A DNA stretch of 64,000 bases. Source: an uncultured cyanobacterium. Its GTDB lineage: Bacteria; Cyanobacteriota; Cyanobacteriia; Cyanobacteriales; CAWCAG01. The first letter of the stretch is position 1, and every line of letters starts with the position of its first letter. Where the stretch lies: positions 727,525-791,524 of the forward strand of contig CAWDOD010000011.1 in the NCBI GenBank assembly GCA_963803805.1, given 5' to 3'. Under the pieces are notes generated by a model. The model was given only the letters and a program-made list of their open reading frames with translations, ran no database searches and had not been told where the DNA came from. Shown piece by piece: positions 6,429 to 27,901 of this stretch. The position numbers were made by a program, and so were the translations under genes.

Positions 6429-6619
6429 AGTTATTTCATGGGGTTGGGTGGGGTAAACTAAATTAGCAGATAAGCCACTATTACGAATAGTTAACTCGAC
6501 CTATGGCTAGGCTTTTATGTCCTGAAGGAACTTAAGGAGCCATATATTCCGTCAATATTCAGTAACACTCGTTACTAAGTTAAGCTGGAATAAAGCAGGT
6601 GCGCTTCAAGGAAAAAGCT

Positions 6620-9600
6620 ATGGTAGTTCCTATTTCAATTGTTATTACTACTTATAATCGAGAAAAGTTTCTCGGATTTGCCATAGAGAGTATTTTAAGG
6701 CAAACCTGGCTAGATTTCGAGCTATTGATTTGGGATGATGGTTCTACCGATAATTCCCTGGCTGTTGCTCAAAACTATGCCCAAGAAGATCAACGAATTC
6801 GGGTAATTGCCGCAGAACATCAAGGTAGAATACTCGCTTTAAAAGGTGCGATCGCCCAAACTCAGGGGCAATATCTAGCTTGGGTAGATAGTGATGATCT
6901 TCTTGCACCGACGGCTTTAGAAGAGACTTTAGTTGTCTTAGAAGCTAATTCTGACACAGGTATGGTGTATACCGATTATTGGGATCTTCATGACAATGGT
7001 AAAGTACTTGGTTATGGTCAGCGAACTAAGGTTGCTTATTCTCCTCATCAACTGCTAACTAATTTTATGACCTTTCACTTCCGGTTGATACGTCGTACTG
7101 TTTTTGAGGAAGTGGGAGGTATTGATAGCCAATCTTTATATACAGAAGATTATGATCTTTGTTTACGGCTTTCTGAAGCAACAGAAATTAAACATTTAGC
7201 CAAACCTCTCTATTATTATCGCAGCAACCCAGAGAGCTTTTCTTACCAAAAAAGAGCCGAACAAATTTATGCTAGCTATGGGGCAACTTTAAGGGCATTA
7301 AAACGAAGAGGACTTAGCGATCGCTACGAGGCAGTTGTTAAAACCAAAGGTTTTGGTTGCAAGATGGAAGCTTGGTTAGGTTTACGCCCTCTCAAAAATC
7401 TTGCAACGAGGTTTTTAAATTTACCCATCAAGTTTTTAAAAACTAATGCAGGTTTGAGTTTTTTCCCCACCTTAGTCACAACTCTATGTTTAATCCCTAC
7501 CTTAAACGCCCAGGCACAAACCATTAATTCCGCCAGTGATGGTACAGGAACTATTGTTAACCAAACTGGCAATCAGTTTAATATCCAAGGGGGAAGCTTA
7601 TCAGGAAATGGGGGCAATCTATTTCACAGTTTCCAAGACTTTGGGCTTTCTGCATCCCAAACTGCCAACTTCCTTTCTCAACCTGGCATTAATAATATTT
7701 TAGGTCGAGTTGTCGGGGGCAATGCTTCGGTAATTAATGGCTTAATTCAAATAACAGGAAGCAATGCCAACCTCTTTTTAATGAATCCCGCAGGTATGGT
7801 TTTTGGTAGCAATGCCCAATTAAATATTCCTGGTTCCTTTACCGCTACCACCGCTACAGGTATAGGTTTTGAAGGAGGAACTTTTAACAGCGTCGGCACA
7901 AGCGATTATAACTCTTTAGTAGGTAATCCTAATGCTTTTGTCTTCAACAGCTTACAACCGGGGGCAATTATTAATGCAGGGGATTTAGCCGTTACAACGG
8001 GTAACAACCTTTCCTTGATTGGCGGTACTGTTGCTAGTACAGGAACATTACAAGCCCAGGGGGGTAACATTACCATTAGTGCTGTACCCGGAAGTACTAG
8101 GGTAAGAATTAACCAAGCTGGACATATTTTAAGCTTAGAAATTGAACCACCTACTAACGCTCAAGGTGATCCTCTGCCCATTGTCCCTTTAATGTTACCG
8201 GAATTGTTAACAGGAAGTGATGTGGGGGATACAGGCTTAGAAGTTAACCCTCAAGGAGAAGCACGCTTAAGAAACTCTGACACTACCGTAGGAGTAGGAG
8301 ACGTGGCAGCAAATCAGTTAACCGCAGAAAGTGCCACCTTAACAGCAGCGAGTAACTTAACTTTAGTTGAAAGCAACTTACAAACTACAGGGGATTTAAA
8401 CCTCAAAGCAAAAGATACTGTTTATGCGAGGGATAGCGCCAACGCGCCTTTACAAATAAAAGCAGGGGGCAATCTCTACATTCAAGGGGACAAAGGTATT
8501 GATATTTTGGCTTTGCAACATACCCAAACTCCTTTTGTTAGCGGTGGCAACTTAAGCTTAGTTAGTGACGGCATTATTTCTGGGGATGCCCATTATCTCA
8601 GTGGCGGCAATTTCTCCATCCTTAACTTACAAGGAGATGGAGGCAACTTTGTTAGTTTTTATGACCCCATCATTAGTTCTACAGGGGATGTTACCTTTGG
8701 TAATTATACAGGGGTTTCTTTAAAAGTAGAAACTTTGGGCAGTATTAACGGTGGCAACATTATCATCAACGGAGCAGATACTCCCGGTGCTATACCGACA
8801 AGCGATCCTCACTTCACTGTCCTAACTACAGGTAACGGTGGGTTAGTTTTGCAAGCAGGAAAAACTAGCTTAGATAATACAGCTAATACACCCCAAACTA
8901 CAGGAGGAACTACTTTTAATGGTTCCGGGACTCCTACCACTGGAAGTATCAATGTAGGGGATATTGATGTCGGTTTTGATGGCTTTACCCATTACGGTGG
9001 CCCTGTGATTATTGAAGCCACTGGTAACGTGCAAACGGGAAATATTAGTACTTTTAATAACGATGATTTTGTAGTAGGCAGCGATCTCAGGGGAGATATT
9101 ACTATCACAACAACAGGTAATATTACCACAGGAGCAATCGATTCTTCTACAAACCTTAATTTTCCTAGCAATGATCAAAGTTTTGGTGGTGATATAAATT
9201 TAATCGCAGGAGGTCAAATCACCACAGGAGACATTAATTCCTCTGCTGTAACAGAAACCTTTGGAGGCGCAGAAGCAACTGGTGGTAATGTTACTTTAAC
9301 TGCAGGAACAACGCTCACCACGGGAACAATTAATGCTTCAGCATTAGCACAAGAAAATGATGGCGGTGGCCCTACCTTAGCAAGAGGGGGAAATGTTATT
9401 TTAACAGGTGGTTCAACTCCTGGTAGCAATATTATTTTTGGTGGTATCGATACTACTGCTATTGGAATACTTGGTCTTGGCAGCAATCAAGGTTTTGGGG
9501 GTCAAGTTACTGTCACAGCTAGCAACGGCACTGTAAGAGGTCTTCTCGGTGGCAACACCGTTGCTACTGGGGGTACGACCCAAGGTGGAGATGTTAGCAT

Positions 9601-11491
9601 TACCCACGATGGTGGTGCTGATAATGATCCTTTCAGCATTGGCGATGCCAGCACTAATGGCTTAGCAGGGGGCATTAATACAGGTACTAACACCCTTGAC
9701 ACTGGCTCTTTCCCTGTCCTTCCCAATGGTGGTGCTGCTTCCGGAACACCAACAGATATTACCATCACTTCCGTCAACACTCCTCCCACCCTCGCTACAA
9801 ACTCCTTAAGCGGGGCCCAACAAGACCAACCTTTCACCTTCACCTTTGCAGACTTAAACCCAGTTACGGGAGATGTTAATAGTGATAATCTTACCTCCAT
9901 TACTATTATTTCTATTGATGCCGGTACACTGACAGTCAACGGCGTAACAGCAACAGCAGGAACGGTTATTTCTTCTGGGGATACTTTAGTTTACACACCC
10001 CCAGCAGGAACTACAGGCAGTGTAAATAGTTTTACCATCAGTGTTAGCGATGGTGTCTCTTCGACTCAGCAACCAGTAAGCATTAATGTAGCAACCATAG
10101 CCGTAGATGATCCTATTCCAGATGATCCTATTCCAGATGATATTCTTCCCGAAGAAACTCCTCTGCCAGAAGTTAATTTTGACCAACCCGTTCCCCAATT
10201 GCAAATTGACCCCATCATTCAGCAATTGGAGAAGAAATTTACTGAGGATTTTGAAGATTATTTTGGTGAAGAAGATGATAACGAAATTACTAGTTTAGAT
10301 GAAGCTAAAGATATTTTACGCAGCATCAACAGAGAAACAGGAGTTAAACCAGCCCTTATTTACGCTGCCTTTTTCCCTGCTGAATTAGCTGCACCTTCAG
10401 AAACTGAGGAGGAAAAGCAACTAGATAAGTCTAATAACTTAAAATTTCCTTCCCAAGAAAACGATCAATTAGAACTTGTTCTCGTAACTGCTGAAGGAGA
10501 AATTCTCCGCAAACCGATGCGAGGTATAACTCGTGCCAAGGTACAACAAGTTGCTAAAACCTTTCGCCGCACCATTACTAATCCTTCCCGTCCCAATGCT
10601 TACTTAGTCCCGTCCCAACAGCTATATCAATGGCTGCTTGCTCCCTTAGAAGAGGAGTTGCAGGCCCAAGGGATTAATAACATCGCCTTCATCCTTGATG
10701 CGGGGATACGTACTATACCCCTTGCTGCCCTCCATGATGGACAGCAGTTTATCTTGGAAAAATATAGCCTAGGTTTAATGCCAAGTCTTTCCCTAACTGA
10801 CACTCGCTATGTTGATGTGAAAAACATGGAAGTTTTAGCCATGGGAACCGAAACATTTTCTGATCTACCAGATTTACCCGCCGTACCCATAGAATTAAAT
10901 ACAATTGCTAACAATTTATGGCCGGGTAAATCTTTGCTGGGGGACAAATTCACTCCAGGAAATCTCAAATCAGAACGTGCTAATGTACCTTTCGGTATCA
11001 TCCACCTCGCTACCCATGCTGAATTTAATGCTGGTAAACCCAATAATTCCTATATTCAATTTTGGGACCAGAAAATCAGTTTAGATCAATTGCGTCAGCT
11101 AGGCTTAAATCAGCCTGCGGTAGAGTTGATGGTGTTGAGTGCTTGTCGTACTGCTGTGGGCAGTGTGGAATCAGAGTTAGGCTTTGCTGGGTTAGCTAAC
11201 CAAGCCGGAGTTAAATCAGCCTTGGGAAGTTTATGGACAGTCAGCGATGAGGGGACTTTAGGCTTTATGACCACACTATACGAGCAACTTAAGGTTGCTC
11301 CTATTAAAGCAGAAGCATTGCGCCAAGCACAACTGGCGATGATTAAAGGGGAAGTTAGGTTGCAAGACGGCAAGCTAATTACTCCAGAAATTGAAGTCTC
11401 TTTACCGCCCAATTTAGCTGCATTAGGGGATGAAGAGTTGAATCATCCTTATTATTGGAGTGCTTTTACTATGATAGGAAGTCCTTGGTGA
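6620..11491 (+). CDS. GT2 glycosyltransferase fused to a TpsA exoprotein (filamentous haemagglutinin N-terminal domain, beta-helix, cadherin/Ig-like domain, CHAT protease domain)
   Basis: SIVITTYNR, DDGSTD, VDSDD and EDYDL GT2 motifs; internal hydrophobic AQAQ signal; NLFHSF and NPAG TPS motifs; IHLATHAEF and LSACRT CHAT dyad; HPYYWSAFTMIGSPW end. ATG 6620 follows AAGGA; the frame is open from 6599. Confidence 0.88.
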   Translation: MVVPISIVITTYNREKFLGFAIESILRQTWLDFELLIWDDGSTDNSLAVAQNYAQEDQRIRVIAAEHQGRILALKGAIAQTQGQYLAWVDSDDLLAPTALEETLVVLEANSDTGMVYTDYWDLHDNGKVLGYGQRTKVAYSPHQLLTNFMTFHFRLIRRTVFEEVGGIDSQSLYTEDYDLCLRLSEATEIKHLAKPLYYYRSNPESFSYQKRAEQIYASYGATLRALKRRGLSDRYEAVVKTKGFGCKMEAWLGLRPLKNLATRFLNLPIKFLKTNAGLSFFPTLVTTLCLIPTLNAQAQTINSASDGTGTIVNQTGNQFNIQGGSLSGNGGNLFHSFQDFGLSASQTANFLSQPGINNILGRVVGGNASVINGLIQITGSNANLFLMNPAGMVFGSNAQLNIPGSFTATTATGIGFEGGTFNSVGTSDYNSLVGNPNAFVFNSLQPGAIINAGDLAVTTGNNLSLIGGTVASTGTLQAQGGNITISAVPGSTRVRINQAGHILSLEIEPPTNAQGDPLPIVPLMLPELLTGSDVGDTGLEVNPQGEARLRNSDTTVGVGDVAANQLTAESATLTAASNLTLVESNLQTTGDLNLKAKDTVYARDSANAPLQIKAGGNLYIQGDKGIDILALQHTQTPFVSGGNLSLVSDGIISGDAHYLSGGNFSILNLQGDGGNFVSFYDPIISSTGDVTFGNYTGVSLKVETLGSINGGNIIINGADTPGAIPTSDPHFTVLTTGNGGLVLQAGKTSLDNTANTPQTTGGTTFNGSGTPTTGSINVGDIDVGFDGFTHYGGPVIIEATGNVQTGNISTFNNDDFVVGSDLRGDITITTTGNITTGAIDSSTNLNFPSNDQSFGGDINLIAGGQITTGDINSSAVTETFGGAEATGGNVTLTAGTTLTTGTINASALAQENDGGGPTLARGGNVILTGGSTPGSNIIFGGIDTTAIGILGLGSNQGFGGQVTVTASNGTVRGLLGGNTVATGGTTQGGDVSITHDGGADNDPFSIGDASTNGLAGGINTGTNTLDTGSFPVLPNGGAASGTPTDITITSVNTPPTLATNSLSGAQQDQPFTFTFADLNPVTGDVNSDNLTSITIISIDAGTLTVNGVTATAGTVISSGDTLVYTPPAGTTGSVNSFTISVSDGVSSTQQPVSINVATIAVDDPIPDDPIPDDILPEETPLPEVNFDQPVPQLQIDPIIQQLEKKFTEDFEDYFGEEDDNEITSLDEAKDILRSINRETGVKPALIYAAFFPAELAAPSETEEEKQLDKSNNLKFPSQENDQLELVLVTAEGEILRKPMRGITRAKVQQVAKTFRRTITNPSRPNAYLVPSQQLYQWLLAPLEEELQAQGINNIAFILDAGIRTIPLAALHDGQQFILEKYSLGLMPSLSLTDTRYVDVKNMEVLAMGTETFSDLPDLPAVPIELNTIANNLWPGKSLLGDKFTPGNLKSERANVPFGIIHLATHAEFNAGKPNNSYIQFWDQKISLDQLRQLGLNQPAVELMVLSACRTAVGSVESELGFAGLANQAGVKSALGSLWTVSDEGTLGFMTTLYEQLKVAPIKAEALRQAQLAMIKGEVRLQDGKLITPEIEVSLPPNLAALGDEELNHPYYWSAFTMIGSPW

Positions 11492-11532
11492 TTGAATAAT
11501 ACCAAAGCGCTATTTGGTAGCACAGGTTATTT

Positions 11533-11650
11533 GTAAGAGAGAACCAAGAAAAGACTTATCCAAAAGCGATAAGCTAATGGCTAGTTGCTAGTTGCTAGTT
11601 GCTAAAATCTTATACTTGGTGAGGATATTTTATTTATTAGAGTTCTCTAA
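11533..11650 (+). repeat. 118-bp dispersed MITE-like element, copy 2
   Basis: Inverted copy of 5610-5727 with only a few substitutions. Confidence 0.85.
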
Positions 11651-11738
11651 GAGTAGTGTTCTCCTTGACGTTACAACGGATCAATCAACGGGAATATTAA
11701 CCTTACAGAAGTTGTTAAAGCCCAAGGATAAGTCATAG

Positions 11739-14700
11739 ATGAATTTAGCAATAGATTTTATGAGCGGACTTGTGGGATACCGTCTCGTTAAGGAATTATA
11801 CAATAGCTCTAGAACTATTGTTTGTCGAGCCGTTCGCGTAGAAGATGAGTATCCTGTCGTCGTTAAACTGTTAAAGCGAGACTATCCTAGTTTTCCTGAA
11901 CTGCTGCAATTCCGTAACCAATATACTATTACCAAAAATCTTGACCTACCTGGGGTTATTAAAACCTACGCTTTGGAGAATTGCCGCAACAGCTATGCCC
12001 TGATAACAGAGGATTTTGGCGGTATATCTCTCAAAGAGTATGCCCTAACCCATCCTCTACAAATAGGTGAATTTTTAGCGATCGCTCTACAACTGTCTGA
12101 AAGCCTCAATGGACTTTACCATCATCGTATCATTCACAAAGATATCAAGCCTGCCAATATTCTCATCAATGCCGACACCAAACAAGTAAAATTAATTGAC
12201 TTTAGCATTGCTTCACTGCTACCCAAAGAAACCCAAGAAATCAGCAATCCTAATGTCCTCGAAGGAACCCTCGCTTATATTTCCCCGGAACAAACGGGGC
12301 GAATGAATCGGGGTATCGATTACCGAACTGATTTTTATTCGGTTGGAGTTACTTTCTATGAACTACTAACTGGAAAGTTACCCTTTGTCTCCAATGAGGT
12401 AATGGAGTTGGTGCATTGTCATTTGGCTAAACAACCTCCGGCATTAGGGGGACGGGGAGAGATTCCCCAGGTGTTGTCAGACCTTGTGATGAAGTTGATG
12501 GCGAAGAATGCTGAAGAGCGCTATCAGAGTGCTTTGGGGTTGAAGTCTGATTTAGAGAATTGTTTATCTCAATGGCAGAAACAAGGGAAGATTGCGACGT
12601 TTACATTGGGAGAAAGGGATATATGCGATCGCTTCATCATCCCCGAAAAACTCTACGGCAGGGAAGCAGAAGTTGCTCAGTTATTAGAAGCCTTTGAGAG
12701 AGTTAGCAATCTGATATCAGATACCAAATATCAGAAATCAGTTCAATCTGTTTGTCCGCGAAGTGAATTAATGCTGGTTGCTGGATTTTCTGGCATTGGC
12801 AAAACAGCAGTGATTAATGAAGTTCATAAACCCATCACCAAAAAACGAGGCTATTTCATTAAAGGCAAGTTTGATCAATTTAATCGCAACATTCCTTTTT
12901 CGGCTTTTGTCCAAGCTTTTCGTAGTTTAATGGGACAATTGCTAGGGGAATCTGATCTCGAACTCGCCAATTGGCAAAGGCAAATCCTCAAAGCAGTAGG
13001 AGAAAACGGACAAGTTATTATTGATGTGATTCCTGAGTTGGAACGTATCATTGGACAACAACCCAGGGTTCCTGAACTGTCAGGCATTGCAGCACAAAAT
13101 CGCTTTAACCTGCTGTTTGGGCAATTTGTGAATGTATTCACAACCAAAGAACATCCCCTCGTAATTTTCCTTGATGACTTGCAGTGGGCAGATTCAGCCT
13201 CTTTGAACCTGCTGAAATTGCTCATGGACGAGTCAGAAGCAGGCTATCTACTGGTGTTAGGAGCCTATCGTGATAACGAAGTTTTTCCTACCCATCCGTT
13301 GATGCTGACTCTAGATGAACTTCAACAACAGGGTAGAAAGATTAATACCCTGACCCTAGCCCCCTTAAACGAAGTGAATATTACTCGTTTGGTTGCTGAT
13401 ACGTTGCTATGTAAAACGGAAATCGCTGCGCCATTATCCCAACTAGTCTATCAAAAGACCCAGGGGAACCCATTCTTTACAACCCAATTTTTGCAAGGGT
13501 TACATGAGGATGGCTGTATCACCTTTGCTCCTGATTTGGGTTACTGGCAGTGCAACTTGACCAAGGTGCGGCAGTTGGCACTAACGGATGATGTGGTAGC
13601 GTTTATGGTGGGACGGTTGCGAAAGCTGCCGGCGATCACCCAGGAAGTCTTGAAACTGGCGGCTTGTATTGGTAACTGTTTTGACTTGCCAACCTTAGGG
13701 ATGGTGTGCGATCGCAACCAAGAAGAAGTAGCAACAAATTTATGGAAAGGATTACAAGAGGGCTTTGTAATCCCAGAAAGCGAAACTTATAAGTTTTTTC
13801 AAGGAGAACAGAATCAAAATCAGACTATTGAAGACATTACCGTTGGCTATCGTTTTTTACATGATCGCGTCCAACAAGCAGCTTACTCCCTGATTCCCAA
13901 AACCGAGCGGGGAATTGCCCATTATCAAATTGGACAACTGCTACTGCAAAAGATACCTCCAGAAGCACGAGAAGAGCGTATTTTTGAACTCATCAATCAA
14001 CTCAACCATGGTACAAACCTAATCACCGAGCAAAAAGAACGAGACGATTTGGCTCAACTAAATCTTACCGCTTGCCGTAAAGCCAGGGCAGCCACAGCCT
14101 ATCAAGCCGCTTATGATTATGCCACCATCGGCATCACTTTGCTCAGAGAAAAGCCTTGGCAACGACAGTATGGGATGACCTTAACCCTCCATGAATTAGC
14201 CGCAGAAATCGCCTCCCTAACCGGAGAATTTGAGGAGATGGAAGCTTGGATTGAAGCGGTAGTCCATCATAGCAAAACCTCACTGGACAGAATACAAACC
14301 TATCAAGTTAAAATTCAAGCCCTCACCTCTCGTAATGAATTTGTTGAAGCGATTGCCACCGGGAAATTTGTCCTGGAACTATTGGGGGCCACTTTGCCCG
14401 ATACTCCTACCCTGGAGGATGTACAACAAGCAAGGCAAGAAATTACGGACTTAATTGGCGATCGCTCAGTAGCCGAATTTGTCCATCTGCCCCAGATGAA
14501 AGAGCCAGAAAAGCTAGCCATTCTACAAATTTCTACGAGCCTCATCCCCGCTTGTTATATGACGGGTTCCATGCTCTATTTGTTAATTGTACCCCTTCAG
14601 GTCAAATTATCAATCCAATTTGGCAACAGTTTATTTTCTCCCTATAGCTATGCCAGCTACGCCTTTCAACTCAGTACCACCTGGCAAGATATGGCCATTG

Positions 14701-17150
14701 CCCAACGATTTGGGCAATTGGCCTATCACCTTGCTTCAGAACCAGAGGCGAAAAATATTCGTGCTGCCACTTTTATCGTTTTGGGGGGCTATTTTTATCA
14801 CTGCACTAGCCATCTCAGAAAGACATTGCCGATCCTGATTGAAGGCATTCAAGCAGGCTTAGAAACTGGCAACTTAGAATTCTTTGGCTACAACGTTCAA
14901 AACTTTGGTGTCAACGCTTTCTGGAGTTGTCAATCTTTAGCAGACTATGAAACCCAGATTCATAGCTACCATCAGCAATTGCTCAGCCTCAACCAAGTAA
15001 CCACCTCCAATCATTGTTTCATTTACTGGCAATCGGCCCTAACCCTATTAGGCAACTCAGAAGGAGAAATCATCTTACGCCAAGATATCTATGAAGAAAA
15101 AATTATAACTGAAGCCCTTGCTGCGAATGATACGTGGCGATTATTTCAATTTTATTTTTACCGCTTAGCCACCGGATTTATTTTAGACCAATTGCCCGAA
15201 GTGCAACAAGATGCCAATCGCGCCCGACAGTACTTAAGTGGATGTGTCGGCAGTGCGGCTGAGCCAATTTTCTACTTTTACGACTCATTAATCGCTCTTA
15301 CCGAATTGGAGGAAACCTCTTTAAACTCAGAGACGCAATGGCAGCGGCTGCAAGACAATCAAGAGATTTTGCACAAATGGGCAAGCCATGCTCCCATGAA
15401 TTACTTACACAAATGGCAACTTGTGGAAGCAGAACGGCAACGGGTATTAGGGGGAATTCCAGAAGCAATAGAATATTACGAACAAGCCATTATGGGAGCT
15501 AAAGAAAACGAATACATCCAAGAAGAAGCCTTAGCCAACGAACTTGCTGCTAAATTCTACCTCAATTGGGGTAAAGAAAAAGTAGCGAGCGGTTATATGC
15601 AAGAAGCTTACTATTGCTATGCTCATTGGGGAGCTAAAGCTAAAGTTTCTAATCTCGAAAGCAACTATTCTCAACTACTAGCTCCAATTCTTAATCAGCC
15701 CCAGTCTGTCTCTAGCAGCGAAGAAAGCATTCTCGAATCTACTAGCAATTATGAAAAATCCTCTTCTACCATCTCCTTAGCCTTAGATTTCGCTGCTCTC
15801 CTCAAAGCTTCTCAGAGCCTTTCTAAGGAGATTGAACTTGATAAGTTGCTTGCTGCCTTACTGAAACTTATCATTGAAAATGCTGGAGCCAATAAATGTG
15901 TCCTCATGCTCAATAAAGCCGGGCAGTTGCAAGTAGAAGCGGTTATGGTACTAGGACAATCACCCCATGTCATGAAATTAGTTCCTGTTGAAGCCAGCCG
16001 AAATATTGCCCGTAACCTAATCAACACTGTGAAGCGAACGTTAAAATCTACTGTGATTATGGATGCTACGGTGCATCCTTCCTTAAGCAACGACTCTTAC
16101 GTTCAACAACATCAACCCAAAAGTTTGTTATGTACTCCCCTGCTTTACCAGGGCAAGTTGTTAGGTATAGTTTACTTGGAAAATAACCTAGTTGTAGGAG
16201 CCTTCACCGCTAACCGAGTAGAGGTTGTTAACTTGCTTTGTACCCAGGCAGCTATTTCCATTGAGAATGCCCAACTCTATCAACAACTAGAAGCATATTC
16301 CCATACCTTAGAAGAAAAAGTAGAAGCTAGAACTAAACAACTTAAAGTAGCTCAACGACAAATCATTTCTCAAGAAAAACTCGCTTCATTAGGAGCTTTA
16401 ACCGCAGGTGTGGCACACGAACTACGCAACCCCCTCAACTTTGTCAATAACTATGCTGAAGGTTCTGCTGAGTTGAGTGTAGACTTACTAGAAGCCATTG
16501 AAGAACAATCAGCAGTTATCAACCCAGAAGATTTGGAGTATCTTAAGGAGATTGTCGTTGATCTTAAAGATAATGCTGCTGCTATTCAACAACATGGCCG
16601 AAGAGCTGCCAGTATTATCCTCAACATGATGCAACACAGTCGTAGCGATGATAGTGTTTATCAAAAAACTAACCTTAATAAACTTCTAGAAGAAGCTAGG
16701 CAGTTAGCTTACCACAGTAAAAGAAGTATTGATAATCACTTCAATATAACTTTTGCTACCCACTACGACGAGTCCATTGGAGAAGTTGAAGTATTTTCTT
16801 CTTCTTTGAACCGTGCTTTCATTAACCTGATCGATAATGCTTGTTATGCTGCTTGGATGAAGTATCAAGAGCAAGGAGAACCCTTTATTCCTAAGTTGTC
16901 CCTAACAACGAGGAAATTAACAGAACAGGTAGAAATCCGCATCCGCGACAATGGTATAGGAATTTCCCAGGAAATAGTAGAAAAAATTTTCAATCCTTTC
17001 TTTACCACTAAACCTACCGGAGAGGGAACGGGATTAGGATTATCCCTAACCCATGAAATAATTGTTGGACAGCATAGGGGAAGTTTGCAAGTAGAAACAG
17101 AACTAAGCAGTTTTACAGAGTTTATTCTTACCCTACCTGCCGGAAAGTAA
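11739..17150 (+). CDS. Trifunctional Ser/Thr kinase / AAA (STAND-like) ATPase / GAF / histidine kinase (HstK type)
   Basis: HKDIKPANIL, GFSGIGKT Walker A, FLDDLQWAD, GNPFF, GAF domain, AHELRNPL H-box, DNGIG and GTGLGL. Confidence 0.93.
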   Translation: MNLAIDFMSGLVGYRLVKELYNSSRTIVCRAVRVEDEYPVVVKLLKRDYPSFPELLQFRNQYTITKNLDLPGVIKTYALENCRNSYALITEDFGGISLKEYALTHPLQIGEFLAIALQLSESLNGLYHHRIIHKDIKPANILINADTKQVKLIDFSIASLLPKETQEISNPNVLEGTLAYISPEQTGRMNRGIDYRTDFYSVGVTFYELLTGKLPFVSNEVMELVHCHLAKQPPALGGRGEIPQVLSDLVMKLMAKNAEERYQSALGLKSDLENCLSQWQKQGKIATFTLGERDICDRFIIPEKLYGREAEVAQLLEAFERVSNLISDTKYQKSVQSVCPRSELMLVAGFSGIGKTAVINEVHKPITKKRGYFIKGKFDQFNRNIPFSAFVQAFRSLMGQLLGESDLELANWQRQILKAVGENGQVIIDVIPELERIIGQQPRVPELSGIAAQNRFNLLFGQFVNVFTTKEHPLVIFLDDLQWADSASLNLLKLLMDESEAGYLLVLGAYRDNEVFPTHPLMLTLDELQQQGRKINTLTLAPLNEVNITRLVADTLLCKTEIAAPLSQLVYQKTQGNPFFTTQFLQGLHEDGCITFAPDLGYWQCNLTKVRQLALTDDVVAFMVGRLRKLPAITQEVLKLAACIGNCFDLPTLGMVCDRNQEEVATNLWKGLQEGFVIPESETYKFFQGEQNQNQTIEDITVGYRFLHDRVQQAAYSLIPKTERGIAHYQIGQLLLQKIPPEAREERIFELINQLNHGTNLITEQKERDDLAQLNLTACRKARAATAYQAAYDYATIGITLLREKPWQRQYGMTLTLHELAAEIASLTGEFEEMEAWIEAVVHHSKTSLDRIQTYQVKIQALTSRNEFVEAIATGKFVLELLGATLPDTPTLEDVQQARQEITDLIGDRSVAEFVHLPQMKEPEKLAILQISTSLIPACYMTGSMLYLLIVPLQVKLSIQFGNSLFSPYSYASYAFQLSTTWQDMAIAQRFGQLAYHLASEPEAKNIRAATFIVLGGYFYHCTSHLRKTLPILIEGIQAGLETGNLEFFGYNVQNFGVNAFWSCQSLADYETQIHSYHQQLLSLNQVTTSNHCFIYWQSALTLLGNSEGEIILRQDIYEEKIITEALAANDTWRLFQFYFYRLATGFILDQLPEVQQDANRARQYLSGCVGSAAEPIFYFYDSLIALTELEETSLNSETQWQRLQDNQEILHKWASHAPMNYLHKWQLVEAERQRVLGGIPEAIEYYEQAIMGAKENEYIQEEALANELAAKFYLNWGKEKVASGYMQEAYYCYAHWGAKAKVSNLESNYSQLLAPILNQPQSVSSSEESILESTSNYEKSSSTISLALDFAALLKASQSLSKEIELDKLLAALLKLIIENAGANKCVLMLNKAGQLQVEAVMVLGQSPHVMKLVPVEASRNIARNLINTVKRTLKSTVIMDATVHPSLSNDSYVQQHQPKSLLCTPLLYQGKLLGIVYLENNLVVGAFTANRVEVVNLLCTQAAISIENAQLYQQLEAYSHTLEEKVEARTKQLKVAQRQIISQEKLASLGALTAGVAHELRNPLNFVNNYAEGSAELSVDLLEAIEEQSAVINPEDLEYLKEIVVDLKDNAAAIQQHGRRAASIILNMMQHSRSDDSVYQKTNLNKLLEEARQLAYHSKRSIDNHFNITFATHYDESIGEVEVFSSSLNRAFINLIDNACYAAWMKYQEQGEPFIPKLSLTTRKLTEQVEIRIRDNGIGISQEIVEKIFNPFFTTKPTGEGTGLGLSLTHEIIVGQHRGSLQVETELSSFTEFILTLPAGK

Positions 17151-19270: not shown

Positions 19271-21172
19271 ATGACAAAATACTCTTGTATAGCGATTGGC
19301 ATTAATCAATATCAGTTTCTACAACCTTTGAATTACGCTCAAGCAGATGCTTTTAGCTTACGGCAATTTTTCATTAAAGAAACGAATCTGTCCCCGCAAC
19401 AATGTTTACTCCTAACGGAATCTTCCCCTTGGCTAGAAAGAAAATCCACTTACCCAACTAAGGAAAATATTTTAAGCTGGCTCAAAAAAAGTGATGCTGT
19501 CACAGGGGAACCAAATATGTTTTGGTTTTTGTTCAGTGGCTATGGTGTCAATTGGCAAGGGAAAGATTATTTAATACCCATAGATGGCAACCCCCAAGAT
19601 ATCCCGAATACGGCAATACCTTTGGAATCGTTATTGACTGAGCTACAAAAGCAAGGGGGGGATAATATTTTGGTATTGCTAGATATTAACCGTTCCCCAG
19701 GTATCTTTGCTGGAGCATCTGTAGGGGCGCAAACCGCAGCTTTGGCAAGGGAAATGGGTATTGCTTTGATTCTTTCTACTCAGGTTAATGAATATTCCCA
19801 TGAATCCGCTAGTCTTGGTCACGGGTTTTTCACAGAAGCACTTTTAGAAGCCCTAGATTATTATCGCCAAGATTTAACCTTGGAAGTATTAGAAAATTAT
19901 CTTCGTTACCGTCTACCTGAAATTGGTGAGCATCATTGGCGACCGGCCCAAACTCCTATTATAATCACACCATCTCCTCAAGCTAGCAAAGGGAAAATTC
20001 TTCCTGGCAACCAAGAATTTATCAGTTGGCATAACTATTCAGGTTATGGGCAAACTACCTCAAATTCTTCCTCAACAGGGGTAGGGGAAAATGTTGTAGT
20101 TGATCACCACAATAATGGTACAGGGCAAGCTAATCAAACAGGAGTTTTGGATGTAGAAGAAATATCCCCTCATGGCTCTCCTAATAGTTCTCCTAACGGT
20201 TCTCACCCTTACCCACACCATAATGGTAACGGTTCTGGTAGTTCAGCTATTGTTTTTAAACCTAAACCACCTCAAAAGAAGAGTCAAAATTGGTCAGAAT
20301 GGCTGATTTGGGGAGGAGGCGCTGCTTTGATAGCGGCCTTGGTTGTCGCGGCTGTAGCCATCGCTAACCAAGATGATACTAGACAAGAAAGTATTGCTCA
20401 GACGGAAGAACAAATAGCTCCCCCCGTCCCCAGTAACCCCCAAGGCACTGATAGTACTCCGGTTATACCTGCCAATCCCCAAGTAACTATTTCTACGGCT
20501 CAGGCTCCTGCTACCCCTCAACCAACGGCTACTTCGAGTTCAGAGACTCCCCTGGAATCTCCCCCTTTACAGGCTACTAATCAAGGAATCTTAACCCAAG
20601 CGAGAACCTACATCCAAGCGAACCAAGCTTCCGGTTTTAATCGAGCCATTAACCAAGTCCGCAAGATTCAGCCAGGGCAACCATTTTATGAACAAGCCCA
20701 AGCAGATATTACTCGCTGGAGTCAAGTTATTTTAGATATCGCCCAAGGTAGGGCTAACCAAGGTAACTTTGGTGGTGCGATCGCCGCAGCTAAATTAGTT
20801 CCCCCAGATCGCCAAACTATTCATGACAATGCCCAAATCTCTATTCAACAATGGGCTGTCCAAGGGGAACAGCAAAAGAATAATCAACTACTTCTCCAAG
20901 GAGCGAAAGAGCAAATTCGCCCTAATCAAGCTTCTTCCTATAACCAAGGAATTAATATCCTTAAAGCCATTCCTCAAGGGCAATCAGGCTATCAACAGGC
21001 ACAGGAGTTAACTACCCAATGGAGCCGTCAGATTTATTTAATTGCCAATTCCCGCGCCGCTAGGGGCAATTTTTCCCAAGCTATTAATACAGCAGTGTTA
21101 GTTCCTAAAAATACCCCTTCTTATGCACAGGCTCAACAGGCGATCGCCCGTTGGCGAAAAGGGGAAAAATAA
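19271..21172 (+). CDS. Pseudo-orthocaspase: peptidase C14 fold with substituted dyad, TM helix and extracytoplasmic helical repeats
   Basis: IAIGINQY, FSGYG (for SGHG), LLDINRS (for DACRS), GHGFFT.AL, TM segment WGGGAALIAALVVAAVAIA. Confidence 0.85.
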   Translation: MTKYSCIAIGINQYQFLQPLNYAQADAFSLRQFFIKETNLSPQQCLLLTESSPWLERKSTYPTKENILSWLKKSDAVTGEPNMFWFLFSGYGVNWQGKDYLIPIDGNPQDIPNTAIPLESLLTELQKQGGDNILVLLDINRSPGIFAGASVGAQTAALAREMGIALILSTQVNEYSHESASLGHGFFTEALLEALDYYRQDLTLEVLENYLRYRLPEIGEHHWRPAQTPIIITPSPQASKGKILPGNQEFISWHNYSGYGQTTSNSSSTGVGENVVVDHHNNGTGQANQTGVLDVEEISPHGSPNSSPNGSHPYPHHNGNGSGSSAIVFKPKPPQKKSQNWSEWLIWGGGAALIAALVVAAVAIANQDDTRQESIAQTEEQIAPPVPSNPQGTDSTPVIPANPQVTISTAQAPATPQPTATSSSETPLESPPLQATNQGILTQARTYIQANQASGFNRAINQVRKIQPGQPFYEQAQADITRWSQVILDIAQGRANQGNFGGAIAAAKLVPPDRQTIHDNAQISIQQWAVQGEQQKNNQLLLQGAKEQIRPNQASSYNQGINILKAIPQGQSGYQQAQELTTQWSRQIYLIANSRAARGNFSQAINTAVLVPKNTPSYAQAQQAIARWRKGEK

Positions 21173-21279: not shown

Positions 21280-22980
21280 CTAAAAATTAAGGTTCAAACT
21301 AAAATAAAAACCATCATCCTGAAGATTTTCTCCTCGGTCATCTAGGTTAACCAAAGGTAAAGCAGCATCCAAACGCAGATTAAGATTTCTTACAGGTGAC
21401 CAAAGCACTCCCAAACCTAAACCCGCCAGGAAATTTTGCTCAGGTCTAACATTAGGATTATCCCCATTATCAAACACCACTCCCATGTCAAAAAAGGGTG
21501 CTAACTGAAAAACACCAACTCCCTCTTCGCCCCTAGCTAAAGTAATCCGATCTTCTACAGTTAAGCGTACACCATTATCCCCTGCCCTCGCTCCTTGGCG
21601 AAAACCTCTCACAGTAGTTCCCCCGCCAATGGTAAAAGTTTCTGAACCGAGGAGGTTATCAGGACTAAACTGCCCGTCAACTTGTACAATCAACAGATTA
21701 TCTGGACTTAAGCGTTGTACCCTCTGCACTTGACCCAACCAACTAACAAATTGACCATCGGGAATATCACCAGAATTTTCCGTCGCATCAAGTAAACCTG
21801 TACCGAAATTAAACTGCGATCGCACTGCCCAAGCCCCCGCAACATCTCGCTTGAGATAATCCTGTGCCAATCTAAACACACTAGTACGGGTTGTCCCATC
21901 TGCTTCTGCCCCCACACCAAAGGGAGTACCAATATTGTTAAACAGAAAGGTTTGTCCAGTGCGATGGGCAAAGCCAACAGAAAGAGCAAACTCTTCTAGG
22001 GAAGTACGGATAATTGGTTGGCGGAAACTAACCTCATAAAGTTGGGATTCCCCTTCAATACCTAACTCATCAAAAGGAGCTTGGGTAACTTCGTTATTGT
22101 CGGAAATGAAGCGCAGTTGTACTGTACCGTTTTTGGGGTTAACGGGGATAGTGTAGTTAACATCAAAGATATCGGAACCCCCGGTAGTGGAACGGATATA
22201 ACTCCCCCTGAGATTATCTCCTAATCCCGTCAAATTGCGGTAGCCCAAGGTGATACCTGTACGTTCGGAACCTACACTAGCAGAGGAGTAGTTATCCACA
22301 AAGGCGTTGCCGTAAAAAGGTTTAGATTCAGTAACATTAAGCACTAAAAGGGTTTCTCCCGCTTCTGTACCCGGTTGCAGTTCGATTTTAATATCTTCAA
22401 AGAGGGGGTCAGTTTTAAGGAGGCGGAGTTTGTCTTCTAACTCTTGGATATTTAAGGGGGTGGTAACTCCTTGATTGATGCGAGAGAGGACGTATTGGGG
22501 TTTGGTACGTTGTAGACCGTTAATTTGCACATCGGCAAGGCTACCTTCAATGACTTGGATGGTGACAATGCCATCTTCAATGGCTTGTCTAGTGAGGATT
22601 GCGCGACTATTGACATAGCCAGCATCGAAGTAGAGTCGAGTAATAGCATCTGCCACCCCTTGGAGTTGGGAGAGGGAGACTTGTTGCCCTTCTAGGGGTG
22701 AGGTGATGGGGGCAAAGTCTGTGGGAGTGAAGATGGTGCTACCAAGGATTTGGATTTGTTGCAGAGGGAAGGTAAAAGTATCCTCGGTGGCAGGGAGATT
22801 ATCTTGTTGTTGTTCCTCTGGTTGGGGGAAGATTGGTTCCTCATTAACAGGGGTTGGTAATTGTTCTTCTGGTGGTTGAATGAGTCTGTCCCGGTTGGGA
22901 TCTGGTGTTTGGGCTAAGGTTTGAGCCGAGGATATGGCGATGAGGAAGGTTGTGGTTAGGGTTAGTTTGAATAGGTTCAT
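21280..22980 (-). CDS. ShlB/FhaC/HecB family two-partner secretion outer-membrane transporter (TpsB)
   Basis: Signal peptide; POTRA motif (IT.LY...GYVNSRA..., IQVIEG); DNY..ASVG; VRGF motif; terminal Phe. Confidence 0.92.
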   Translation of the reverse strand: MNLFKLTLTTTFLIAISSAQTLAQTPDPNRDRLIQPPEEQLPTPVNEEPIFPQPEEQQQDNLPATEDTFTFPLQQIQILGSTIFTPTDFAPITSPLEGQQVSLSQLQGVADAITRLYFDAGYVNSRAILTRQAIEDGIVTIQVIEGSLADVQINGLQRTKPQYVLSRINQGVTTPLNIQELEDKLRLLKTDPLFEDIKIELQPGTEAGETLLVLNVTESKPFYGNAFVDNYSSASVGSERTGITLGYRNLTGLGDNLRGSYIRSTTGGSDIFDVNYTIPVNPKNGTVQLRFISDNNEVTQAPFDELGIEGESQLYEVSFRQPIIRTSLEEFALSVGFAHRTGQTFLFNNIGTPFGVGAEADGTTRTSVFRLAQDYLKRDVAGAWAVRSQFNFGTGLLDATENSGDIPDGQFVSWLGQVQRVQRLSPDNLLIVQVDGQFSPDNLLGSETFTIGGGTTVRGFRQGARAGDNGVRLTVEDRITLARGEEGVGVFQLAPFFDMGVVFDNGDNPNVRPEQNFLAGLGLGVLWSPVRNLNLRLDAALPLVNLDDRGENLQDDGFYFSLNLNF

Positions 22981-24461: not shown

Positions 24462-27400
24462 TTATGGTTGTTGATTGGGATGGCTAAATTTTGCACCGGA
24501 TGGGGAGGTGCAGGTGGTTCCCTGTGGGTTTTCTTCTTCGTTTTGTTCCTCCGTTGTGTTATCAGTGATAGTTACTTCTGGTATTTCACAAATCCCCTGG
24601 CTTGCACCAAGGTTGTTTAATTGGGTGACATCATCCGTTGCTGTTAGGTCTTGGGTGGGGATGTTTGTTGTCGGGTTTGTGGGGTCGGTTGGCGTTGTTG
24701 GAGTTCCTGGGTCTACTGGCGTTGTTGGAGGAGTGACCGGTACAGTAGTATTCTCTAAATCAAATGTTGCTACTTGTGCGTCTGTTGCCTCTGCTGTTAC
24801 CTGATAATTACCCTCAATACCATTAGCTGTGAAAGGATTTATCGCTTGCCCTTGGGCATCGGTGAAAACCGTTGTACCATTACCGAAAGTACCCGACGCA
24901 CCACTTGCTGGAGCGCTAAAGGTTATTTCTAAGCCTGCGAAGGAGAAAGGTTGACTAGTGAAAGCATCAATAAGTTGGACGCTTAACGGAGTAGCAAAAG
25001 CTGTCTCTACTTGGGCGCTTTGGGGTGTGCCAGTGGGAGTTAGAGCAAATTGCATCTCTACTGCACCAATATCGACAGTTCCGTTAAGAGTACGTGTTGC
25101 CCCCCGTTGGTCAGTGGTTATGCCCATGGGAATATTGCCATTATTGCCTGCATCTAGGGCAGGGCTGCCGGGGATGAGGGCATGGGTTTGTGTTGTACCG
25201 CCATTGTCAGCGAGGGGGTTGATAACTTCACTAATATCGGTGATGCCTGCGGAGGCAAAGGTAAGATCGCTGCCTGTACCTATGGTGCTGGTTCCTGTTG
25301 CACCAGTGATGTCGCCGATGAGGTTGTTGGCAGCGCCGTTAATGTCGTCGCCAGAAACATCAGGGTGGATATTGTTTCCCGTGGGACTGTTGTCAAAGTT
25401 TCCGGCGATGATGCTATTGCTGATAGTGAATGTTCCTCCACTCCTCAAGATACCGCCACCATCTCCTGTTCCGTCTCCATCAGAATCTGCCGTGTTGTTG
25501 GTGATAGTACTATTAGTGATCGTACCTCCATTATTACTATAAATACCGCCGCCGCTACCTGTTGCTTCGTTACTACTAACAGTGCTATTGGTCAGGGTTA
25601 CTGCACCACCGCTGTTGAAAATACCACCGCCGTTTGATGTTGCTTCGTTTCCACTAACAGTGCTATTAGTCAGGGTCACATCACCAGCGCTGAAAATGCC
25701 ACCGGCGACACCTGATCCTGCCGTATTGCCACTGACAGTGCTATTGATCAGGGTAACTGCACTACCAAAGCTCGAAATGCCACCAACGTTACTACCGGCA
25801 CTATTATTACTGACAGTACTATTAGTCAAAGTTACAGTGCCAGACGTTGATAAAATACCTCCTTCATCATTTTGTGCCTGATTATCGCTGACGATGCTAT
25901 CGATCAGCGTCACCGAACTATTACTGTAAATGCCAGCGCTACTTCCTGCCTGATTACCACTGACAGTGCTATTAGTTAGGGTCACATCACCAGCGCTGAA
26001 AATGCCGCCACCTCTATTAAAGCCAGCATTACCATTGCGAATAGTCAAAGCATCAAAAGTAACCTCCCCACCTCCCGTAACATTAAAAATACGAAACTCC
26101 GCCATCCCTGCCGCATCGCGTTCCACAATCACATTAGCCGCACCATTAGCATCGCCGTCTATAGTAAATTTCCCGTAGCTGTGCTGATCTCCAACTGACC
26201 TTGAGTCAGGGTTATCTGGTTTATCCCTGGGGCAAAACGAATCGTATCTGCACCCGAACCAGTTTGACCTTCTACAGTACTGTCACTATTAGAAGCCTCT
26301 AACGCTTCGCGCAAATTCAGTATCCCATCATTATCTGTTGCCCCTGTAGCTGTATCATCTACGTCTTCTTGCACCGTCAAAGTAGCCAAAATTCCCTCAT
26401 AGCTATCCTGAGTTTCAGCAGTAAAAGGATTTGTCGCTTCAATGCTTCCAGTTTGATACTCTAACTCCCAATCTGCCCCAAACTCACTACTACCAGTCAA
26501 GTTAGTGGAAGCTGCCACATCTGCTGCGGTTAAGGTAGCTAAACTATCAACAAATTCTTTCCCCACATCCCCTAAAGCAGCAAAACAACTGTAGAGGAGT
26601 AAGTCGGCATTCACCCCCAAGCCACTTTGCCACTGCTGTATCTGTGCTTCATACTCACTGAGGTTTTGCTGGGAAACAAAGTCTTTACCTAACCAGAAGT
26701 TCCCCCCATTTCCTTCTGTAACAATAGCAAGGCTATTTACAGTACGGTTTTGTTGCCCTAAAGCTGCTAACTTGTCCCCCACAAAAGCGATACCATTGTC
26801 CTCTGTTGTTACCACAAAAGAAGTTGTTCCTTTCACTCCACCATAAAGTAGGCTTTTATAATCTTCTACGGTGCTATCAATGAAAGTGTAGGCTAAGGAG
26901 TCCCCTTCTCCGGGAAATAAGACTACTGTGGGGGCGCTGTGGTTGCCGTTGTGGGTAGAAATTAAGTCTGGGTTGGTGGGAGTTACCTGGTTAGTTGCCA
27001 TGAAGGTAACATCTTGGGCTGTTACTTCCCCAGCTATGGCTACATCCCCATCACTAAAGTTAGTTCCCCCAGTTAAATAAATTTTGCCGTCTGTTCCTAC
27101 GGTGATTTCGTTGGCATGGCCTGTTTCATTGCCTCCACTGAGGTAACGGGGAATATCTATTGCTTTTAAGCCGACACTATCTCCATGATTTTCTGGAGTT
27201 AAGGGGGCTGCATCTAAGATTAATTCTAAGGCCATCCCTTCTTGAGTGATACGAATCTGCTTCTTTTCAGGAATAGCAGCAATAGTAACATTTCCCCCTG
27301 GGGCTTCTAGGGTTCCGGTACTGATGACGCTGTTACCTACTAACCATAATGATGCCCCTGGACTTACTTCTAGGTTCCCTTCGTTGATGATTAGTCCGGT

Positions 27401-27901
27401 TTGAGTGTCAAAGACGAAACTGCTGGGATTTCCTGTTAGTTGAGAAAAGTTGTTGTCTCCTAAAGCGTTGAAGAAGCTGTCTCCGATACCAATACGGGTA
27501 GCTGTGGTGGCGGCGAAGCTACCTGGTACGTCTAATTTTGCCCCTTGGCCAAATACCCAACCGGAAGGATTCATTAAGTAGAGGTTAGAGTTGCCTCCGG
27601 TGAGTTTGATTAGTCCTTCTACTACCGAAGGGTTGCCCCCGGTTATTCTGCCCAGGATGTTGTTGATTTGGGGGTTGGAGAGGAAGTTGGCTATTTCTTG
27701 GGGAGATAAGCCAAATTCAGCGAAGGAGTGGAAGAGGTTGTCTCCAGCTTGGGTTCCGCCGGTGATGTTGTAGGTGTTGCCGTTGTGGTTGATGATTGTC
27801 CCTACTCCATCTGGTGCGGTGGTGATGGATTGGGCTTTTACTTTTGAGGTGAAGAGGAGGAGGGCTAGGGGTAAAAGAAAGAGGCTTTTGACTAGTTTCA
27901 T
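24462..27901 (-). CDS. TpsA exoprotein (haemagglutinin N-terminal domain, DUF4347-like domain, GGGI beta-helix repeats, Ig-like domain), split by a -1 frameshift at 26159-26174
   Basis: Signal KVKAQS; NLFHSF and NPSG; DLLLYSC..DVAAS..LTG..GADWELE; LTNSTVSGN.A..GGGI repeats; L.PGSPALDAG..DQRG..DIGAVE. The two ORFs join as GNLTIDGD; span 3440 nt = 3n+2. Confidence 0.85.

Follow-up and report, generated by a model that had tools for sequence, protein, structure and literature searches.

A gene at 6620..11491 (+) of a 64,000-nucleotide stretch of DNA from an uncultured cyanobacterium (contig CAWDOD010000011.1; the whole stretch is hereafter called the window, and positions count from its first letter) encodes a GT2-family glycosyltransferase, a predicted internal signal peptide and a CHAT-terminated TpsA exoprotein of two-partner secretion (TPS), all in one chain. 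Comparison with related sequences confirmed that this fusion is real and conserved in many cyanobacteria and indicates that it is under selection. TPS is regarded as the simplest of secretion routes, with one cargo and one pore. The best explanation that we can offer for the present gene, held tentatively and at a little under even probability, is a conserved single-chain 'three-in-one' two-partner-secretion exoprotein consisting of GT2, signal peptide and passenger. The topology and cleavage part of this model is probable; that the GT2 glycosylates the exported polypeptide, namely its own passenger and perhaps those of its paralogues, is a tentative proposal that could well be wrong.

The gene forms one stop-free frame of 1623 aa plus stop from the ATG at 6620; an alternative GTG start at 6599 would give 1630 aa. 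Pfam places Glycos_transf_2 at residues 6-165 (E 1e-31), with related GT2 models extending to about residue 218, within a cassette of 250 residues (residues 1-250, 6620..7369). The predicted Sec-type signal peptide follows at residues 251-299 (7370..7516), and then the TPS secretion domain, the part recognised by TpsB, at residues 302-515 (7523..8164; PF05860, E 2e-41); this domain also matches the NCBIfam model TIGR01901 adhes_NPXG (NPxG haemagglutinin N-terminal domain; E 8e-21, residues 335-412), and the translation contains the NPxG-type motif LMNPAGMVFG. The Gly/Thr/Ser/Asn-rich passenger (residues 516-1051, 8165..9772), a presumed β-helix delimited by composition and by homology to relatives, contains 14.6% T, 15.3% G, 8.0% S and 7.9% N and is 34-43% identical to the passengers of relatives. 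It is followed by a cadherin-like (Ig-like) domain (residues 1052-1157, 9773..10090; Cadherin_5, PF17892, E 8e-7), which 9 of the 12 fused loci fetched from other genomes also encode, and by an acidic Pro/Asp/Glu-rich linker and pre-CHAT region (residues 1158-1330, 10091..10609), seen in the translation and matching no Pfam family. The chain ends in CHAT (residues 1331-1621, 10610..11482; PF12770, E 2e-68), predicted to be a caspase-like protease with a His/Cys catalytic dyad; residues H1462, H1466 and C1509 do not vary among the 19 relatives compared. All of these parts lie on the forward strand, and the homologs have the same domain order. The initial annotation of the window had described GT2, TPS, Ig-like and CHAT domains in that order in a single frame, which was borne out by the open reading frame (ORF) scan and Pfam, and each of the sequence elements that it listed was found in its place: DDGSTD at residues 39-44, DSDD at 90-93, EDYDL at 176-180, and LNAQA|QTI at the junction.

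A protein search with residues 1-520 as query covered 5.8 billion proteins at lengths of 892-2841 aa; 8000 candidates were scored, of which 4075 matched at E <= 1e-3. GT2 and TPS domains (PF00535 and PF05860) were found in one protein in 120 of the 120 best matches, which were 51-90% identical to the query, and CHAT (PF12770) was present as well in 114 of them. The organisms named among these 120 homologs are all cyanobacterial (among them Nostoc, Anabaena, Calothrix, Tolypothrix, Coleofasciculus, Leptolyngbya, Stenomitos and Pleurocapsa), and some of the sequences come from closed genomes. Through its length filter and its ranking this protein list leans towards fused forms, and six-frame searches of whole genomes were added for that reason. 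With the 520-aa query and E <= 1e-100, at least 7 of 401 genomes of the phylum, including the source genome itself, contained a match; this is a lower bound, three candidates having been scored per genome. None of the seven matches contained a stop; they ran from residue 4/5 to 512/518, and the frames around them measured 1633-1850 aa. A query restricted to the GT2 (260 aa, E <= 1e-35) gave 29 matches in 25 of the 401 genomes, of which 13 belong to frames of 1162 aa or longer and 16 to short frames (240-620 aa). Regions were fetched around the long-frame matches, that of the window excluded, and in each of the resulting 12 fused loci a single ORF contained GT2 and TPS; CHAT was present in 11, the twelfth being cut by the end of its contig.

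Public sequencing runs bear on the join directly. A 418-nt contig with 0 differences, which may stem from the source sample, spans 7243-7660, and contigs of a strain about 88% identical span 7029-8330 and 7029-8400. The only indels in the contigs of the latter strain restore the frame within about 10 nt: two insertions and two deletions of 1 nt each fall at 7399-7411, where the n-region of the signal peptide is encoded, and a further insertion/deletion pair lies at 7994/7998. Across the family the linker from residue 215 to the hydrophobic h-region is 34-167 aa long and never shifts the frame. Because the frame is thus kept in homologs, genome census, fused loci and bridging contigs, misassembly or a lost stop, which the initial annotation had named as an alternative, is excluded: the join is present in 120/120 homologs, in 12/12 loci and in read contigs across 7243-7660. 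More generally, that the join is an artefact of any kind, a chimeric contig included, has negligible probability, given the many independent assemblies, closed genomes among them, and nothing was counted in its favour. Nor were relatives found that encode GT2 and TpsA as separate genes, the other case that the initial annotation had raised; no TPS or CHAT gene lay around 12 stand-alone GT2 orthologues in regions of 2.9-14 kb each, those of L022, L024 and L025 being limited by contig ends. The short-frame GT2 orthologues were rejected as halves of split TpsA genes on the same grounds.

The junction between GT2 and TPS domain reads ...KFLKTNAGLSFFPTLVTTLCLIPTLNAQA|QTINSASDGTGT, with A-Q-A|Q at bases 7516|7517 (residues 299|300). 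Ahead of it lie a basic n-region, an h-region at about residues 275-292 (GLSFFPTLVTTLCLIPTL) and the c-region N-A-Q-A. In the window product (P0001) and its 120 best homologs, 121 sequences together, the TPS domain is without exception preceded by a basic stretch that leads into a hydrophobic one and a small-x-small site. The site could be placed in 109 of the 121, the other 12 having been missed by the search pattern or containing long inserts; position -3 was Ala in 72 and Val in 29 (101 of 109), position -1 was Ala in 107 and Ser in 2, and position +1 was Gln in 107. This position table supersedes a count of strict AxA sites (71 of 114), which was too narrow. The start of the TPS domain, [S/Q]-I-x-P-A-x-D-G-T, comes right after the predicted cut. 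The uncharged h+c stretch, a crude measure of length that charged c-region residues shorten, has a median of 20 aa both in the fused family (n = 109) and in unfused N-terminal signal peptides (n = 15), and often contains Pro; the net charge of the ten residues before it is +2 in P0001 and at least +2 in 58 of 109 homologs. In the AlphaFold2 (AF2) model, the predicted local distance difference test score (pLDDT) is below 50 over residues 253-299, as a membrane segment would lead one to expect. Unfused TpsAs that the genome also encodes have N-terminal signal peptides that end at the same xA|Q site. One of them, a second TpsA in the window (26159..27901, -; 580 aa, TPS + DUF4347), starts MKLVKSLFLLPLALLLFTSKVKA|QSI; the initial annotation had seen in it the cleavage pattern of the fused gene at a true N-terminus, and the shared site stands, whereas the cut falls at A|Q by the -3/-1 rule and not at AQ|S. 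Mature Bordetella FHA reportedly has a pyroglutamate N-terminus, which the conserved +1 Gln of the fused family recalls.

By every sequence criterion the internal segment is a signal peptide, of signal-peptide rather than transmembrane-anchor length. It has the substrate features of signal peptidase I (small residues at -3 and -1, an h-region and a positive n-region), and a cut after A299 is predicted. An n-h-c segment with [A/V]xA|Q thus appears to precede the TPS domain directly, although it is internal (residues 251-299) and not N-terminal. Since the segment that follows the GT2 shows every feature expected of a Sec signal peptide that is cleaved, the enzyme would have to remain in the cytoplasm. 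The topology proposed by the initial annotation, with the GT2 in the cytoplasm and the passenger exported, is therefore strongly supported by family-wide signal-peptide features; its further proposal, that the GT2 glycosylates the passenger in cis, is a more tentative one.

A cytoplasmic N-terminal domain followed by one hydrophobic segment is also the classic layout of a type II membrane protein. The segment might accordingly be an uncleaved signal-anchor, with the GT2 inside and the passenger spanning the periplasm through TpsB as a trans-envelope link, later release being possible by its own CHAT protease or by a rhomboid; a rhomboid gene follows short relatives of the form GT2, membrane segment and tail in L021 and L026. 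We regard this as improbable, since positions -3, -1 and +1 are conserved as in the cleavable signal peptides of unfused TpsAs, the uncharged stretch is of signal-peptide length (median 20 aa including the c-region), often with Pro, and the TPS domain starts 2-3 residues past the site, with no spacer to span the periplasm to TpsB.

Alternatively, one frame might yield two products, an ordinary cytoplasmic GT2 and a TpsA translated from the internal ATG at 7364 (M249), the join being without mechanistic meaning. Initiation at M249 would give a signal peptide of 51 aa, near that of the unfused paralogue C2_906301 (52 aa), and this Met is kept in the closest relatives; a separate second product could be made from it in the window gene, which counts against a single-chain product. 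Against two products, a Met lies 45 aa or less upstream of the h-region in only 34 of 114 homologs, a stop never separates the two parts despite linkers of 34-167 aa and sequence divergence of about 50%, and the compensating indels of the 88%-identical strain keep the frame exactly in the linker. Between 6200 and 11800, promoter-like sites were no more numerous than background (14 against an expected 11.8 +/- 3.3), with no conspicuous one ahead of 7364. The rarity of the internal Met, together with a linker that is always in frame, implies that the family depends on translation through the join and not on an internal ATG, and we consider the two-product alternative very improbable. Of the suggestion that the exoprotein is made only from the ATG at 7364, which the initial annotation had set against its own proposal, there remains the presence of that ATG in the window gene, while its conservation fails.

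The fused gene has the hallmarks of a TpsA, as judged from its TPS domain with an NPxG-type motif and the availability of a TpsB. The candidate partner, an outer-membrane transporter with POTRA_2 and ShlB domains (Pfam), is encoded at 21280..22980 (-), about 10 kb downstream of the fused gene and adjoining the second TpsA. With 6 clear TpsB genes in the genome, its pairing with the fused TpsA is inferred. In 6 of 12 relatives a homolog of this TpsB (47-54% identity) is the immediate, divergently oriented neighbour of the fused gene, and because of this adjacency the system looks like a working TPS system. Besides the fused gene, the source genome (5.3 Mb, 11 contigs, 97% complete) encodes 16 unfused TpsAs, 7 of which end in CHAT, with an eighth present as an adjacent ORF pair on contig C7; these genes are spread over contigs C2, C4, C7, C8, C9 and C11, and many stand-alone CHAT proteins are present as well. 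With only 6 clear TpsB genes present, the transporters are probably shared among TpsAs. The unfused TpsA-CHAT paralogues are 54-67% identical to the fused protein in the TPS domain and 42-59% at the CHAT end. Ordinary cyanobacterial TpsA-CHAT proteins have in common with it the TPS domain, the Gly/Thr/Ser/Asn-rich passenger, the CHAT end and the xA|Q site, but their signal peptide is at the true N-terminus, whereas about 250 aa of folded enzyme precede it in the fused family. The fusion would behave as a TpsA with an internal signal peptide.

The mechanism that we propose begins in the cytoplasm, where the GT2 domain would be made first and would fold. This is the only compartment with nucleotide-sugar donors, which Leloir glycosyltransferases need. 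As a positive n-region followed by an h-region leads to N-in insertion, the basic-hydrophobic segment would act as an internal Sec signal peptide in that orientation, and the passenger of about 1320 aa would be threaded through SecYEG. A TpsA passenger passes through SecYEG in unfolded form, and its TPS domain mediates uptake by TpsB; here, signal peptidase I would cut after A-Q-A (299|300), leaving a passenger with an N-terminal Gln for export by TpsB to the surface, where the C-terminal CHAT protease and the cadherin-like domain would act. The GT2 may be retained at the inner face of the membrane on its signal-peptide tail. Before or during entry into the translocon it would add sugar to the exported polypeptide, i.e., its own passenger and possibly the unfused TpsA-CHAT paralogues, either directly or by extending a primer sugar set by another enzyme.

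The GT2 looks active as an enzyme. In an alignment of 25 GT2s (13 fused and 12 non-TpsA orthologues), G41, S42, D44, D90, D92, D93, F152, F154, R155, L156, R158, D177 and Y178 are invariant (25/25), and D39, D40 and H153 are conserved in at least 90%; these columns form the GT2 signatures DDGS.D, DxDD, FHFRL.R and DY. The AF2 model predicts a confident GT-A fold (mean pLDDT 82.5, above 88 over residues 1-240), in which the conserved tail RRGL...GRFxLRxK forms a long helix (212-229) and a β-hairpin (236-249). Fold, nucleotide-binding and DxD metal-binding motifs and a catalytic Asp thus appear to be in place. No NCBIfam equivalog model for GT2 came near its cut-off on the fused product (best 80 bits against a cut-off of 423). 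Among solved structures, the best sequence match is to E. coli K4 chondroitin polymerase, in its second GT-A domain (K4CP, PDB 2z86/2z87; E 4e-33, query residues 4-237 on chain residues 375-606), followed by GalT1 (5hea, E 1.5e-19, over the first 105 residues or so only) and heparosan synthase. Foldseek likewise ranked K4CP first (E 1e-21, rmsd 2.4 A over 256 columns), ahead of a Leptospira glycosyltransferase, SpsA, heparosan synthase 2, WrtF, RmlT and TarP. The second GT-A domain of K4CP shares the DxD-type GT-A catalytic signatures with the fused GT2, but K4CP, with its two GT-A domains, is a polymerase of free polysaccharide, whereas the fused protein has one GT2, about 26% identical and tethered to a secreted protein, with a C-terminal helix-hairpin tail (RRGL...GRFxLRxK) that is private to it. 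A bifunctional glycosaminoglycan polymerase of the K4CP/heparosan synthase type was rejected as an identity, there being a single GT-A domain that matches only one half of K4CP.

From sequence and model, the GT2 is a mobile cassette that is closest to glycan-elongating enzymes. A search with the GT2 against a library of 1.84 billion cluster representatives gave 1893 matches at E <= 1e-30; among the best 150, 90 were kept (at least 41% identical) and 60 dropped (28-39% identical, mostly multi-GT2 proteins). The commonest architecture among the 90 was the GT2-TPS fusion (38/90), and four carried sulfotransferases. Pfam scans of 28 other representatives revealed GT2s with a methyltransferase, GT32, GT34 or GT4 domain and tandem GT2s, as well as GT2 with TPR and GT41 (the OGT/HMW1C family) in P0181 and P0201 and with a 2OG-Fe(II) oxygenase in P0211; combinations with DUF4915, GNAT and TPR occur among P0189, P0191 and P0206. 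These last three groups resemble a toolkit in which multi-domain modifying enzymes are assembled on one GT2 type. GT2-sulfotransferase fusions were found in L016 (5862-7562), L017 (5137-6882), L019 (4989-8560) and L022 (5174-6877), and GT2s with Sulfotransfer_3 or Sulfotransfer_4 also in P0123, P0135, P0163 and P0193, often as tandem genes; those in L019 lie downstream of an RHS-repeat protein (10050..14000) and a 454-aa protein of no named family. A stand-alone orthologue of about 260 aa in L015 lies between DegT/exosortase and the exopolysaccharide (EPS) genes Wza/Wzc, and another, in L018 (3121-6133), starts 20 nt behind a C39-peptidase ABC exporter, a layout reminiscent of glycocin loci of the SunS/SunT type.

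The cassette also occurs in proteins of about 400 aa consisting of GT2, a signal-like segment ending in A-x-A and a Gly/Tyr/Pro-rich low-complexity tail (L021:5891-7087, L026:6048-7253, L024:1185-2381 and P0152), which, judged by these features, are a second family with the enzyme tethered ahead of an exported polypeptide; in L021 the next ORF after the GT2-tail gene encodes a rhomboid protease. In a quick tree of the GT2s, 29 of 39 TpsA-fused GT2s fell in one clade (SH-aLRT 96), along with 3 short 'solo' proteins, and the other 10 in an unresolved backbone.

We reasoned that the acceptor could be either the exported polypeptide or a glycan. Glycosylation of the exported polypeptide is favoured because enzyme and substrate make the simplest link between the two halves of the fusion, the other half having no cytoplasmic life; because the cassette is also tethered ahead of a second kind of exported polypeptide; because it recurs with modules directed at proteins (TPR-GT41, 2OG oxygenase) and near protein or peptide exporters; and because HMW1 is a TpsA that is glycosylated in the cytoplasm by HMW1C and is secreted nonetheless. 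Taken as a set, the TpsA fusions, the exported tails, the TPR+GT41 and 2OG oxygenase proteins, the C39-ABC exporter, the RHS locus and the likeness to GalT1 suggest that the cassette is linked to protein modification and secretion.

Several observations weigh against this choice of acceptor. The nearest structures all belong to enzymes that act on glycan or polyol acceptors and not on polypeptide. Orthologous cassettes (45-61% identical) occur without a neighbouring TpsA, either as stand-alone proteins beside exosortase/Wza/Wzc genes or joined to sulfotransferases and other glycosyltransferases, so that a TpsA is not required as the acceptor. Among the 8 TpsA-CHAT genes of the genome (9 with the C7 ORF pair), a single one carries the GT2. 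The passenger is not unusual in composition compared with the 7 unfused TpsA-CHAT paralogues of the same genome, and its NxS/T density (17.9 per 1000) lies within their range of 4.7-26; composition was accordingly rejected as a mark of glycosylation, being uninformative. No priming glycosyltransferase or sugar-nucleotide gene is conserved beside the 12 fused genes, whose only recurring neighbours are TpsB (6/12) and CHASE2 sensors (4/12, in L027, L032, L035 and L036). Finally, an internal signal of hydrophobic character may direct the chain to Sec while it is still being translated, so that hardly any time would remain for modification in the cytoplasm. For the proposed topology, on the other hand, RodZ offers a precedent: there, a hydrophobic segment that follows a cytoplasmic N-terminal domain reportedly directs the protein to Sec co-translationally (PMC5674894).

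The main rival, which we consider rather unlikely, retains the same topology and has the GT2 act on a glycan (a lipid-linked oligosaccharide, exopolysaccharide or other envelope glycan) in place of the passenger. The fusion would then fix enzyme and exoprotein at 1:1 and deliver the enzyme to the inner membrane via the cleaved signal-peptide tail, so that adhesin/protease and matrix sugar are co-produced; if so, one gene would yield a matrix glycan enzyme and a surface protein in stoichiometric amounts. This is consistent with the best sequence and fold matches, which are polysaccharide or teichoic-acid enzymes, with the location of the L015 orthologue between exosortase/DegT and Wza/Wzc, and with an exosortase near the fused genes in L035 and L036. 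Fusions to sulfotransferases, GT4, GT32 and GT34 suggest stepwise building of a glycan, the cassette is also found with just a membrane segment and a short tail, and both the ordinary passenger composition and the absence of a priming glycosyltransferase beside the 12 fused genes point the same way. It leaves unexplained, however, why a TpsA in place of any membrane anchor is so frequent a partner (38 of the 90 kept representatives); EPS genes are conserved neither beside the 12 fused genes nor beside the window gene; and cleaved signal peptides are normally degraded, so that a stable anchor is an extra assumption.

Returning to glycosylation of the exported polypeptide, a more specific form would have the GT2 held by its own internal signal peptide at the entrance of SecYEG, where it would glycosylate the still unfolded passenger during its entry into the channel and could also serve the 7-8 unfused TpsA-CHAT paralogues, before signal peptidase cuts it off; the gene product would be a self-contained glyco-secretion polyprotein. 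We offer this as a speculation that is rather unlikely to hold; if true, it would be a cytoplasmic-side counterpart of translocon-associated glycosylation, and, because the cassette also precedes an internal signal segment with a Gly/Tyr/Pro-rich tail, a general trick.

Among known systems, two couple a cytoplasmic glycosyltransferase to a secreted adhesin. GalT1 uses a GT2-type domain to extend sugars on a streptococcal serine-rich-repeat adhesin in the cytoplasm before export; GalT1 is a separate enzyme that follows a priming glycosyltransferase in a Gram-positive accessory Sec system, whereas the fused GT2 is in the same chain as its cargo. Closer in secretion type is HMW1 of Haemophilus influenzae, a TpsA that, according to the accessible parts of three reports, is glycosylated in the cytoplasm by HMW1C before export (PMC2877744, PMC3983070, PMC4550697). 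As far as those parts describe it, the HMW1A/HMW1B/HMW1C system resembles the present one in coupling a TpsA/TpsB exoprotein to a glycosyltransferase that would act in the cytoplasm before Sec export. It differs in that HMW1C is a separate gene of family GT41, with a GT-B fold, and N-glycosylates Asn, in contrast to a GT2 with a GT-A fold fused ahead of the signal peptide, and in that the HMW1 passenger ends in an adhesin domain and not in a CHAT protease. The fused gene is not a member of the HMW1ABC type, as no HMW1C-like GT41 is encoded beside it; no GT41 gene was found adjoining it or among the scanned neighbours of the 12 fused loci, and the two GT41 genes of the genome, on contigs C2 and C10, are unlinked to it and neither prove nor exclude priming. 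The ESPR of TpsA proteins and autotransporters is likewise an N-terminal extension before the classical n-h-c signal peptide of a type V protein, but it is a peptide of about 25 aa that has neither fold nor catalysis, whereas the extension of the fused family is an enzyme of 250 aa.

A search of full-text literature, with subscription journals and supplements outside its reach, found no description of a GT2-TpsA or GT2-TpsA-CHAT fusion, and the accessible part of a survey of polymorphic toxins (PMC3482391) does not describe a GT2-TpsA architecture. The initial annotation had known of no characterisation of the architecture, with which the outcome of this search agrees; the fused proteins are nevertheless common database entries, annotated generically, for example as 'CHAT domain-containing protein' or 'filamentous hemagglutinin family protein'. 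If the proposed mechanism is correct, it would be a new way of coupling modification to export and a natural case of a bacterial Sec signal peptide that works and is cleaved about 250 residues inside a protein, and it would give a handle on the role of the many secreted CHAT proteases of filamentous and mat-forming cyanobacteria.

Further genes were noted around the fused gene and its relatives. In L027 a DUF928 protein (15274-16263) lies beside the fused gene, and small YbjN/TY-Chap1-like (chaperone-like) proteins are encoded just downstream of it in L029 (14496-14972) and L031 (8992-9468). In the window, a 556-aa ORF, 37-38% identical to the passengers of L037 and L038, comes after the second TpsA in the same orientation (together 24462-27901, -), upstream of TpsB; the two may be one gene split in two. 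A Peptidase_C14 (caspase-type) protein (19271-21172, +) is encoded beside TpsB, and two giant proteins with Ser/Thr-kinase, AAA_16, GAF and histidine-kinase domains lie at 11739-17150 (+) and 30156-35633 (+), the former directly downstream of the fused gene.

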